A DNA stretch of 64,000 bases from an uncultured Oligoflexia bacterium (GTDB lineage Bacteria > Bdellovibrionota > UBA1018 > CAYHWW01). Under the pieces are notes generated by a model. The model did not search any database. It was given only the letters and a program-made list of their open reading frames with translations, and was not told where the DNA came from. The stretch is taken from contig CAYYYP010000009.1 in NCBI GenBank assembly GCA_964475985.1, positions 14,662-78,661 of the forward strand, in the 5' to 3' direction. Positions 9,499-10,904 of this stretch are shown here, piece after piece. The translations under genes were made by a program, and so were the position numbers. Positions within the stretch are counted from its first letter, which is position 1. Each line of letters opens with the position of its first letter.

Positions 9499-10803
9499 TT
9501 AATGTGATACTGGGACTAATATTTCTGCACTACTCGCGGCAGGGCTTGGCCCCACCGGCAAAACCGCGGTAGTTTCTGAAAGAGCTTCCCTGGAAAAGTT
9601 CACGGCGCGCGGATACGCTCCTTCGCTTGTAGGCCTGAAATCCCGCAACACCGGCCTGCGCCTACGCGGTGATGGCGGTACCAATGAAATTCGTTGAGAC
9701 CCCCGCTGTCTCTCCGCTCCTGCCGCCTGCGTTGCCGCCTCCGCAAGTTCATCCACGGATTCTTCAAGCACACAAAGATTTCCATCCGGCCCAATGCGAA
9801 AACGAATTTCTGGCGGCACTACGGTAGGGTTTCGGCCTCCAGCCGCATCGGCAATCCGAACTCCCGTTGACTCAACGGGCGCCGGCGCCGAAGGAGCCGG
9901 TACACCCGGCGCTGCCGAACTCACCGCTCCCGCACGTGATCTGAAACGCCTAGCTTCTGCAGCCGTTGATCTCGCAAATCTTGCTACTCCGTTGCCGGTA
10001 GCGGAAGCTGCATTCCTAAAGGCTTGCCTTCCGCGACTTAAACCGCGCCAAAACCATCCTCGATTCCGTAAAATCTGACTTTCCATAACCCCATTGACCC
10101 ACTCAGGACTATACCCAGCTGCTTGCAATGCACGCATGGTAGGAGTGTTCGCTGCATTCTGTTGAATTGCCGCTCCGTAAACATATTCGCTAGCAATGCC
10201 GATCAGCAAGCCAAAGACGCCCCATCCTAACCCCATTTCCTCCAGCCGCATGGGGAGGTTCGGTACAAGATATCCTCCGATTATAAAAAGCCCGCATGCG
10301 AGACTAATCCTTGAAGCCATCCGAAAAACTCGTATCGCTCCATTCCCTGGCACAGCCTCACGTCGCATTCCGTCCAGAAACTGCCTCAATGTATTTAATT
10401 TATCTGGAGCAAGTTCGCACGGACTGGGATTACGATAGGGAACTAGGGTGGTACCTCCGGTGCACACCGGAGTATTCATGCAGGTCTCCAGTTGCGCCAG
10501 CGCATCCGCCACATCCGCAGGTAAAACAGCAGCAGTGTCGACCGAACTTGGTGCCTGTAACTCGTTCGGTTGCACAGGTGGCCCGGAACCCGGCACATCA
10601 TCATTCCCCACCGCGAGTTTCAGTTGCAACAAAATGGACGCCACCAACGCTAAGCAAAGAATGTTTCTGAAGAGGTTTTTGAAACCAAAAAGCATAGCGC
10701 GATCCACTCCATTAAGAATATCGGAGTACAATTCGATTACTTTAGATGAGGCCTCATCTGTCCATACCTGCCTAGTGAAGGAATGCACATAGGAGTACGG
10801 CAA
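9499..10803 (-). CDS. Hypothetical multi-pass membrane protein with an Ala/Arg/Pro-rich tail
   Basis: 434 aa with at least three hydrophobic segments and no recognisable family. It lies 118 bp upstream of, and on the same strand as, the 1616-aa gene, so co-transcription is likely. Its start codon abuts palindromic element A. Confidence 0.55.
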   Translation of the reverse strand: MPYSYVHSFTRQVWTDEASSKVIELYSDILNGVDRAMLFGFKNLFRNILCLALVASILLQLKLAVGNDDVPGSGPPVQPNELQAPSSVDTAAVLPADVADALAQLETCMNTPVCTGGTTLVPYRNPSPCELAPDKLNTLRQFLDGMRREAVPGNGAIRVFRMASRISLACGLFIIGGYLVPNLPMRLEEMGLGWGVFGLLIGIASEYVYGAAIQQNAANTPTMRALQAAGYSPEWVNGVMESQILRNRGWFWRGLSRGRQAFRNAASATGNGVARFARSTAAEARRFRSRAGAVSSAAPGVPAPSAPAPVESTGVRIADAAGGRNPTVVPPEIRFRIGPDGNLCVLEESVDELAEAATQAAGAERQRGSQRISLVPPSPRRRRPVLRDFRPTSEGAYPRAVNFSREALSETTAVLPVGPSPAASSAEILVPVSH

Positions 10804-10904
10804 TCATAAAAATATCCCTCAAGGGGACTCACGCGTCAGGATGACGGATCCCACGCGTGTGTAGCGCACGATGCGCGTCCCCTTGAGGGATATTTTTATG
10901 ATTG
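10801..10904. repeat. Composite palindromic element, copy A: perfect 28-bp inverted arms around a 48-nt structured core
   Basis: Arms are caatcataaaaatatccctcaaggggac and gtccccttgagggatatttttatgattg. The core contains two ACGCGT sites and a small GCGCA-cga-TGCGC hairpin. It shares a ~32-nt core with copy B at 24908..25029. Confidence 0.8.

Follow-up and report, generated by a model that had tools for sequence, protein, structure and literature searches.

A palindromic element with a conserved tip and variable arms at the edges of two giant-gene cassettes in an uncultured Oligoflexia bacterium

In a 64,000-nucleotide (nt) stretch of contig CAYYYP010000009.1 from an uncultured Oligoflexia bacterium of predatory type (phylum Bdellovibrionota; assembly GCA_964475985.1; the whole stretch is called the window below), a long palindrome lies between the stop codon of a PhoH2 gene and the start of the next gene, and a second palindrome of the same layout lies 14 kb away. 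What kind of element is this, and is its structure under selection, as the initial annotation of the sequence had proposed? We found it to be a real, unclassified and lineage-restricted structured element of about 116 nt, whose unusual trait is a conserved tip on varying arms. Neither chance nor artefact is its source, since a perfect inverted repeat of 34 base pairs (bp) is far beyond chance, and an assembly artefact was rejected because the palindrome is internal to the window and independently breaks the de Bruijn contigs of two other samples at the k-1 node. As to its role, we tentatively propose a lineage-specific bidirectional terminator or insulator hairpin whose conserved tip would bind a factor, its C[A(G/C)GAU]G loops resembling CsrA sites; we regard this proposal as possible, with somewhat less than even confidence.

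Anatomy and conservation of the two copies

Copy A (10795-10910) consists of two 34-nt arms (10795-10828 and 10877-10910), which are 100% complementary and form stem P1, enclosing a 48-nt core (10829-10876). The 5' arm runs from an outer segment, GTACGGCAATC, through an A-rich tract, ATAAAAATAT (five A at 10808-10812), to a GC-rich inner stem, CCCTCAAGGGGAC (10816-10828), and the 3' arm runs back through inner GTCCCCTTGAGGG, T-rich ATATTTTTAT (five T at 10893-10897) and outer GATTGCCGTAC. The initial annotation had recognised the long perfect repeat and the 48-nt core, but had given the arms as 28 bp. In the plus-strand core, according to minimum free energy and centroid folds and to motif positions, P2 is formed by CACGCGT (10830-10836) and ACGCGTG (10853-10859), enclosing a GGAT/ATCC stem (GGAT-GACGG-ATCC), and a TGTA linker leads to P3, GCGCA-CGA-TGCGC (10864-10876), which directly abuts the 3' arm; both the CACGCGT...ACGCGTG pair and the small hairpin had been described correctly. 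The core also carries the motifs CAGGATG (10837-10843) and CACGATG (10867-10873), and its loops read GUC[AGGAU]GAC and GCGC[ACGAU]GCGC. Minimum free energy and centroid folds both give a three-way junction of P1, P2 and P3, with a predicted folding energy of -82 to -86 kcal/mol and z-scores of -13.6 and -14 against shuffled sequences. The base of the stem reads GTACGGC...GCCGTAC, and the flanks are ATAGGA on the left and GTCTCA on the right.

The sole other long inverted repeat of the 64 kb, copy B, lies at 24911-25026 and has the same 34/48/34 layout. Its arms form a 32-nt inverted repeat at 97%, or 34 pairs when two wobble positions are counted, namely two A·C pairs of the plus strand that are G·U pairs on the minus strand. 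The left arm on the plus strand (24911-24944) comprises ACACGACGGCCC, seven A (24923-24929) and CTTGCGTGAGGAAAC, and the other arm (24993-25026) comprises GC, TTCCTCACGCAAG, seven T (25008-25014) and GGGCCGCCGTGT. The core (24945-24992) is in reverse-complement orientation relative to that of copy A; read on the minus strand it is TCACGCGTCACGATGACGATCCCAAGCGTG-AAGCA-GGGCAGGATGCCC, with P3, GGGCA-GGA-TGCCC, at 24945-24957. Its loops are of the same two types in swapped places, GUC[ACGAU]GAC and GGGC[AGGAU]GCCC, its stem base reads ACACGGC...GTCGTGT, and its flanks are GGTGGCC and TTCATAC. The minus strand, which carries the AGGAU loop and corresponds to the plus-strand core sense of copy A, folds better than the plus strand by 4.8 kcal/mol (-80.0 versus -75.2 kcal/mol), and the folding z-scores of the two copies range from -10.5 to -14. 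The annotation had thus been right that a second copy shares the core; the span is shorter than the 24908-25029 given there, and the core is inverted relative to copy A, although the genes flanking both copies are all on the minus strand. The plus strand of copy B also contains the 7-mer GCGTGAG twice, in the left arm (24930-24936) and at the end of the core (24985-24991), either of which is a possible partner for CTCACGC in the right arm (24998-25004); this gives an alternative hairpin that has no equivalent in copy A.

Tips and arms are conserved to different degrees. On the alignment of the two copies, the cores are about 82% identical and the arms about 50%; core B is the only other match to core A in the window (31 nt, 90%, E 0.002, reverse-complement), whereas a blastn-short search with arm A recovered arm A itself alone. 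Nevertheless, the arms of the two copies have the same length, the same tract position and an ACGGC box in the outer segment near the base, and 16 of 34 positions are identical, so the description of them as completely different went too far. P1 is 100% paired in both copies: of its 34 aligned pairs, 16 are invariant, 16 have changed on both sides and two are G·U, so that 16 of the 18 differing pairs show two-sided change. These pairing values were reached by none of 500 shuffles, and controls with a slid register gave 36-49% pairing. P3 has one compensated change between the copies (GCGCA/TGCGC to GGGCA/TGCCC), and P2 appears broken in the pairing count because a 1-nt indel was left ungapped in the alignment. 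The common layout, the tripartite arms and the ACGGC box are most simply accounted for if the whole unit is homologous between the copies, in which case pairing and the A/T tract would be the sole constraints on the arms, and the core would be constrained in sequence. The full pairing of P1 with its 16 two-sided changes, the compensated changes in a strain allele of copy A (next section) and the stronger conservation of the core than of the arms support the earlier suggestion of a family selected for structure, on a comparison of two copies in 64 kb of the source genome and of partial strain alleles.

This family is very small as far as it is visible, namely two copies and their strain alleles. 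When the whole window was compared with Rfam 15 at gathering thresholds, no family matched, and at E-values up to 10 the locus gave only spurious sub-threshold matches to miRNA hairpins and SorX. Exact core patterns had no match in 185,579 species genomes and none in JGI metagenomes, a single chance match inside a coding region was found among viral contigs, and blastn against plasmids and phages returned nothing. Two covariance models, R1 for the complete element and R2 for its core, found no third copy in the window with filters off, nor any further copy in 87-88 related loci (about 1.36 Mb), with the exception of a structure-driven R1 match at L030:13548-13679, in a Pseudobdellovibrionaceae metagenome-assembled genome. 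This is an imperfect three-way-junction hairpin of about 130 nt and 66% GC in a 760-nt AT-rich region between divergent genes; it matches no Rfam family, and its several G·U pairs are confined to one strand. CACGCGT is not significantly enriched in the window. Searching with the core and comparing with Rfam, as had been recommended, thus yielded neither further copies in related loci or public collections nor a known family, and the element is lineage-restricted and matches no catalogued family in the collections searched.

Genomic position and alleles in other strains

The window is ordinary chromosome, encoding SecA, MetRS, EF-G, CoaD, RsmD, a two-component system and similar proteins, and its PhoH2 is 73-78% identical to proteins of Bacteriovoracaceae, Oligoflexia and Bdellovibrionales metagenome-assembled genomes. 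No transposase, integrase, recombinase, reverse-transcriptase or HUH-nuclease (Y1) domain was found in its open reading frames (ORFs) of at least 150 amino acids (aa). Both copies of the element lie between co-directional genes; the distance from the preceding stop codon is 82 nt (A) and 142 nt (B), and the next start codon follows after about 100-118 nt. Copy A does lie, as annotated, between the PhoH2 stop (10992) and the next gene; however, that gene most likely starts at the ATG at 10695 and encodes 398 aa, not the 434 aa that a TTG start would give, and the intergenic region is therefore 296 nt long with the element mid-way. The order there is PhoH2, 80 nt, copy A, the 398-aa gene and giant gene 1 (4531-9381), and at the other locus the promoter region of a histidine-kinase gene, about 10 nt, copy B, 142 nt, giant gene 2 (25168-30429) and MetRS. 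The giant genes, both on the minus strand, encode paralogous proteins of 1616 and 1753 aa (29% identity over 258 aa) that match nothing in Pfam or NCBIfam. A profile of their shared region picked out a rare family: out of 1.84 billion proteins it matched only 62 cluster representatives, five with E-values under 1e-30, and the seven matches that we tested likewise have no Pfam domains; giant gene 2 had no homolog in a word-based protein search.

Each copy is located just inside a strain-variable cassette, adjoining its border with conserved core DNA. When the element is read in the core sense, the cassette is on the 5' side of both copies, but the direction of its genes with respect to the element is reversed between the two loci. 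In relatives, synteny is kept upstream of PhoH2 and broken where copy A sits. The borders were located with contigs of the same species from the Logan assemblies SRR14932553 and SRR14932552; as these contigs end inside the palindrome, the comparison covers arms and flanks. For no fewer than ~350 nt at the 3' end of the PhoH2 coding sequence, the contig L001 shows 100% identity to the window (for the whole gene, non-synonymous divergence dN is 0 and synonymous divergence dS 0.044), and its identity falls to about 65% directly after the PhoH2 stop codon, which defines a strain-variable spacer on the minus strand between that stop and copy A (10911-10991). L001 terminates in GTACGGCCGTCATAAAAATATACTT, and L087, which holds an 81%-identical ortholog of the 398-aa gene, starts with the exact reverse complement of the L001 end. 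The node common to the two is 30 nt long, that is, k-1 at k=31, as is expected of a de Bruijn assembler at a perfect palindrome. Judging from these contig ends, a second strain carries the element at the copy A site. In this allele, four substitutions have occurred in the 25 comparable arm nt, two of them transversions, and all four are exactly compensated; its palindrome starts 5 bp further out than that of copy A. The arm divergence of about 16% is lower than the dS of 0.39 (dN/dS 0.26) in the adjacent 398-aa cassette gene, whereas dS is 0.04-0.08 in the flanking core genes (PhoH2 and the kinase). Beyond the 398-aa gene, downstream, the other strain is unalignable with giant gene 1.

On the kinase/regulator side of copy B, the contig L089 and the window share 98.4% identity for 5.6 kb, up to 24898. 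The boundary between conserved and variable DNA therefore falls at 24898/24899, and the 12-base flank of copy B (24899-24910) lies on the variable side. L089 is about 50% identical over the arm and 15 nt of flank, save for the 9 arm nt next to the core, and ends exactly at the arm/core junction, which suggests that the copy B site is also occupied in the sibling sample. Its arm retains the order of inner stem, T-rich tract and outer stem, so that the division into outer stem, AT tract and inner stem holds for all four arm versions (A, B, L001/L087 and L089). Sharp switches from near-identical core DNA to strongly diverged cassette DNA were observed between these strains of one species, over 9499-10991 against L001/L087 and over 24899-25026 against L089.

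A possible terminator and its competitors

In both copies and on either strand, the order of A-tract, GC stem, core, stem and T-tract has the polarity of an intrinsic terminator, with arms built of an outer stem of 11-12 nt, an A/T tract of 7-10 nt (ATAAAAATAT in A, A7 in B) and a 13-nt GC-rich inner stem. The initial annotation had seen no U-tract and had concluded that the element is not a simple terminator, which is mistaken: GTCCCCTTGAGGG is followed by ATATTTTTAT in copy A and TTCCTCACGCAAG by TTTTTTT in copy B, and both copies have a mirror A-tract on the 5' side. A scan for terminator patterns flagged GTCCCCTTGAGGGAT plus ATTTTTATGA on both strands of copy A; in copy B it flagged the plus strand, as the small hairpin GCGTGAG-CTTC-CTCACGC followed by AAGTTTTTTT (24987-25004) and the T7 tract, which looks like a canonical terminator. 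Ordinary terminators of the same layout occur in the window at 36513-36547 (AAAAAGCACCCCGCA...TGCGGGGTGCTTTTT) and at 58434-58467. This polarity on both strands, the A-tract and GC-rich stem, and the position after a stop codon between co-directional genes are what the element has in common with intrinsic terminators, and a bidirectional terminator/insulator separating a variable cassette from core genes would be in keeping with this position and polarity. The proposal also draws on the pairing maintained across P1, the constrained core, the G·U asymmetry of copy B and the recurrence of a long P1 with an A(G/C)GA-loop hairpin in two other Bdellovibrionota metagenome-assembled genomes, L041 and L030 (see below).

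From these features we infer three putative activities, namely termination, RNase III cleavage and factor binding. The element would act mainly within the RNA of the neighbouring genes, in either orientation, and a terminator/insulator role of this sort would be independent of orientation and so fits the opposite orientations of A and B. The GC-rich 13-bp inner part of P1 together with the U-tract would form a bidirectional intrinsic terminator that insulates the strain-variable giant-gene cassette from the adjacent core genes. Read-through RNA would form the full 34-bp perfect duplex, an expected substrate of RNase III, and upstream and downstream messages would therefore be uncoupled. The conserved tip is not explained by termination and thus points to a bound factor: the sequence-constrained tip would show two C[A(G/C)GAU]G pentaloops, one of the GGA type recognised by CsrA-family proteins, and would probably be the platform on which a protein tunes termination or decay. 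CsrA is known to bind GGA in short hairpin loops, with the consensus RUACARGGAUGU (PMC2896534), and the CsrA of Bdellovibrio is functional (PMC13443453). If this function holds, a conserved two-hairpin module that probably binds a protein would take the place of the usual short loop, and the stem would be extended to a duplex of RNase III length, which would make this terminator/insulator a compact device isolating fast-evolving accessory cassettes from housekeeping operons. The element also draws attention to two paralogous orphan giant genes, in which strains of this uncultivated Bdellovibrionota lineage differ strongly although they are otherwise ~98-99% identical.

Several points weigh against a terminator/insulator. 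Canonical intrinsic terminators have loops of 3-10 nt, and the 48-nt, branched, sequence-conserved two-hairpin "loop" is far outside this range; the 11-12 perfect bp beyond the A/U tracts are superfluous for termination, and a conserved core sequence is not required by a terminator. Owing to the opposite core orientations, the mRNA-sense loop of copy A is CAUCCUG and not CAGGAUG, which weakens a strand-specific RNA-protein role. Known CsrA sponges have many GGA loops, whereas each copy has one, the other loop being CGA. A role of CsrA is accordingly offered with reserve, because of the single GGA loop per element and because copy A is antisense to local transcription. Furthermore, perfect Watson-Crick arms and compensated transversions fit homogenisation at the DNA level at least as well as stepwise RNA compensation, and the sample consists of two copies and partial alleles.

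Homogenisation of this kind is central to an explanation by which the element would be a non-autonomous selfish repeat of the REP, ERIC or MITE type, tolerated in intergenic DNA, with arms kept complementary by template switching or gene conversion and not by functional selection. Two intergenic copies of about 116 nt without an ORF, 14 kb apart and in opposite orientations, speak for such a repeat, as do arms that are perfect even at transversions, a palindrome edge that varies between strains (by the 5 bp noted above for L001/L087) and the analogous long hairpins with unrelated arms in other Bdellovibrionota loci. Indeed, DNA-level homogenisation of palindrome arms could mimic RNA covariation, and the compensated arm changes alone cannot separate the two: the two compensated transversions speak rather for homogenisation, the G·U asymmetry of copy B rather for RNA selection, and the conservation pattern as a whole gives a clean test of one against the other. 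However, a direct-repeat target-site duplication is absent from the flanks of both copies; conservation is lowest in the arms, the usual target of a transposase, and highest in the core; the window ORFs contain none of the mobility domains listed above; no third copy or solo core turned up in the window, the 87 related loci, the 185,579 species genomes, JGI metagenomes, plasmids or phages; and no empty site was seen, the copy A locus being occupied in the second strain and, as the L089 break suggests, the copy B locus too. A conserved tip on free but perfectly paired arms is also the opposite of the classical REP, ERIC and MITE pattern. ERIC and REP/REPIN sequences are co-transcribed intergenic imperfect palindromes that form long RNA hairpins and can alter mRNA stability, REPINs being hairpin-forming doublets; their conserved sequence lies in the palindromic arms, and REPINs depend on a RAYT transposase, whereas our element has no conserved arm sequence and the window ORFs of at least 150 aa encode neither a RAYT protein nor a Y1/HUH domain. 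Correia elements (CREE/NEMIS) of Neisseria have arms that are conserved transposase-type terminal repeats, TA target duplications and hundreds of copies. They resemble our element in being intergenic, roughly 100-150 bp long and built of inverted-repeat arms around a core, but its arms are variable (16 of 34 positions shared), no duplication is present and two copies are known. Transcribed Correia hairpins are bound or cleaved by RNase III, with effects on neighbouring expression (PMC2649163), and so set a precedent for the action of this enzyme on repeat hairpins in RNA. We consider an origin as a tolerated repeat unlikely; were it true, the element would be of local interest only.

It is more doubtful that the element is a strand-specific functional RNA module, that is, a three-way junction excised by RNase III within P1 or made separately, which binds a protein (e.g. 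CsrA via the GGA loop) or a small ligand, as a terminator-embedded aptamer. A closing stem that covaries around a conserved core is what a structured RNA classically shows, and in copy B and L030 it is the AGGA-sense strand that the G·U asymmetry favours. CAGGATG occurs in the cores of A, B and two further hairpins, in L041 and L059; its background frequency, both strands counted, is about 169 per Mb. In A, B, L041:15406-15531 and L030:13548-13679, a long stem has a [GC]GC-A[GC]GA(N)-GC[GC] hairpin 1-3 nt ahead of its 3' strand; these four elements from three genomes account for 4 of the 32 occurrences of the motif in 1.42 Mb, and the unrelated control loops ACCA, AAGA, GAAG, ATTA and TGGT gave no such placement. 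GGA-loop recognition by CsrA and its activity in Bdellovibrio (see above) would agree with such a module, as would the alternative structures in which GCGTGAG of copy B pairs with the core or the other arm. On the other hand, no promoter-like site for independent transcription was found, copy A is antisense to both neighbours, and no Rfam family was matched even at E up to 10, the spurious miRNA-hairpin matches aside. The CsrA/RsmA-binding hairpins of the sponge RNAs CsrB and RsmZ are similar in presenting AGGAUG in the loop of a short GC-closed hairpin, but our element has a single GGA loop beside a CGA loop, lacks its own promoter-like site and is antisense in one copy. Moreover, P2 is unrelated in the putative relatives L041 and L030, and the core-only model finds nothing outside the window. 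As the P2 parts are not alignable, we keep the hint of a wider class as a lead only. In its boldest form, this lead would make both copies members of an undescribed Bdellovibrionota-wide class of three-way junctions at the edges of hypervariable cassettes, in which the long stem covaries freely, P2 varies and a hairpin with an A(G/C)GA loop adjoins the 3' strand, and which would act as protein-controlled (e.g. CsrA-controlled) terminators or as hairpin recombination sites for swaps of giant-gene cassettes; we judge this decidedly improbable.

Recombination is also the basis of a proposal that we hold to be highly improbable, a DNA-level site that marks or mediates the exchange of strain-variable cassettes, the tip of its extruded hairpin or cruciform being recognised by a recombinase or nuclease with a logic like that of integron attC sites or rolling-circle terminal hairpins. 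It would explain why both copies stand just inside hypervariable cassettes, A at 80 nt from the drop in identity from 100% to ~65% and B at ~10 nt (12 bases) from the rise to 98.4%, why dS is so much higher in the cassette gene than in the flanking genes, why synteny breaks at copy A, why paralogous orphan giant genes are found in both cassettes, and why, in the core sense, the cassette is on the same (5') side of both copies. But a shared side has a 50% chance expectation with two copies, a terminator travelling with the cassette accounts for the same position, relative to the element, the genes of one cassette run opposite to those of the other, no second site occurs at the far cassette ends, and no recombinase is encoded nearby. 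In integron attC sites, which form arrays close to an IntI integrase, the tip varies and the R''/R' boxes at the base of the stem are conserved. Our element is like them in conserving structure over sequence, in standing at one end of a gene cassette and possibly in its branched apex, but its tip is conserved, boxes of the attC type (RYYYAAC...GTTRRRY) are absent from its stem bases, and there is neither integrase nor array. The T- or Y-shaped hairpins of parvovirus inverted terminal repeats, which are viral replication origins bound by the Rep nuclease, offer an analogy of shape only (a long stem, two small internal hairpins and an asymmetric tip in either orientation), as nothing viral or Rep-like is present in the window.

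Other identities were tried and rejected. A hammerhead or other ribozyme does not agree with the junction strands or with the negative Rfam result, the loops are not the suitably closed ACGR loops of a guanidine-II riboswitch, and the reverse transcriptase of a retron is absent from the window ORFs of at least 150 aa. An invertible promoter was rejected as the GC-rich core contains no promoter hexamers, 48 bp are too short and the window encodes no recombinase. Insertion of the core into the loops of ordinary terminators does not agree with the stem lengths, which are 14-20 bp in other hairpins of the window and reach 34 bp only in the two that bear a core, nor with the tripartite design common to all four arm versions.

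Other hairpins and repeats around the locus and in related genomes

The spacer between the PhoH2 stop and copy A holds a further hairpin (10925-10970), whose 20-bp arms are 85% complementary and which has no U-tract behind it; in the other strain a hairpin of different sequence (CCTGGTCATCGTTTT / AAAATGATGGCCAGG) occupies the same spot. On the other side of copy A, the Shine-Dalgarno sequence of the 398-aa gene could be sequestered by ACTCC...GGAGT (10704-10728), which is also kept in L087; a similar arrangement is found upstream of a 42%-identical paralog of this gene in L088. A tandem repeat with a 9-nt unit, (CTGTAGCGC)n, opens the L088 contig (1-30), 100 nt ahead of the paralog, and the hairpin element was not seen upstream of this paralog.

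A scan of Bdellovibrionota loci for inverted repeats recovered long near-perfect hairpins with arms of 25-101 bp, unrelated arm sequences and branched cores, all of them intergenic, most of them shortly after stop codons and none matching Rfam. They are located at L041:15209-15339 and 15406-15531, L059:11729-12014, L025:8065-8168, L052:16924-17057, L070:5438-5580, L072:7321-7427 and L038:20657-20781; the L059 hairpin, which stands at the end of its contig, is possibly an assembly artefact. AGC(A/G)GGATGCG-TTTT-hairpin-AAAA is common to the L041 pair and L059, and L025, L052 and L070 have in common GCTTCGCTGC, which holds a GCGAAGC mini-hairpin on the other strand. A different kind of repeat was observed in Geomonas/Geobacteraceae loci, where tandem heptamer arrays (ACGTTCT or GTTCGAx) face an inverted partial copy across 20-85 nt (L018:14680-14830; L023:1578-1698 and 14671-14775; L047:11326-11427; L053:8081-8186).

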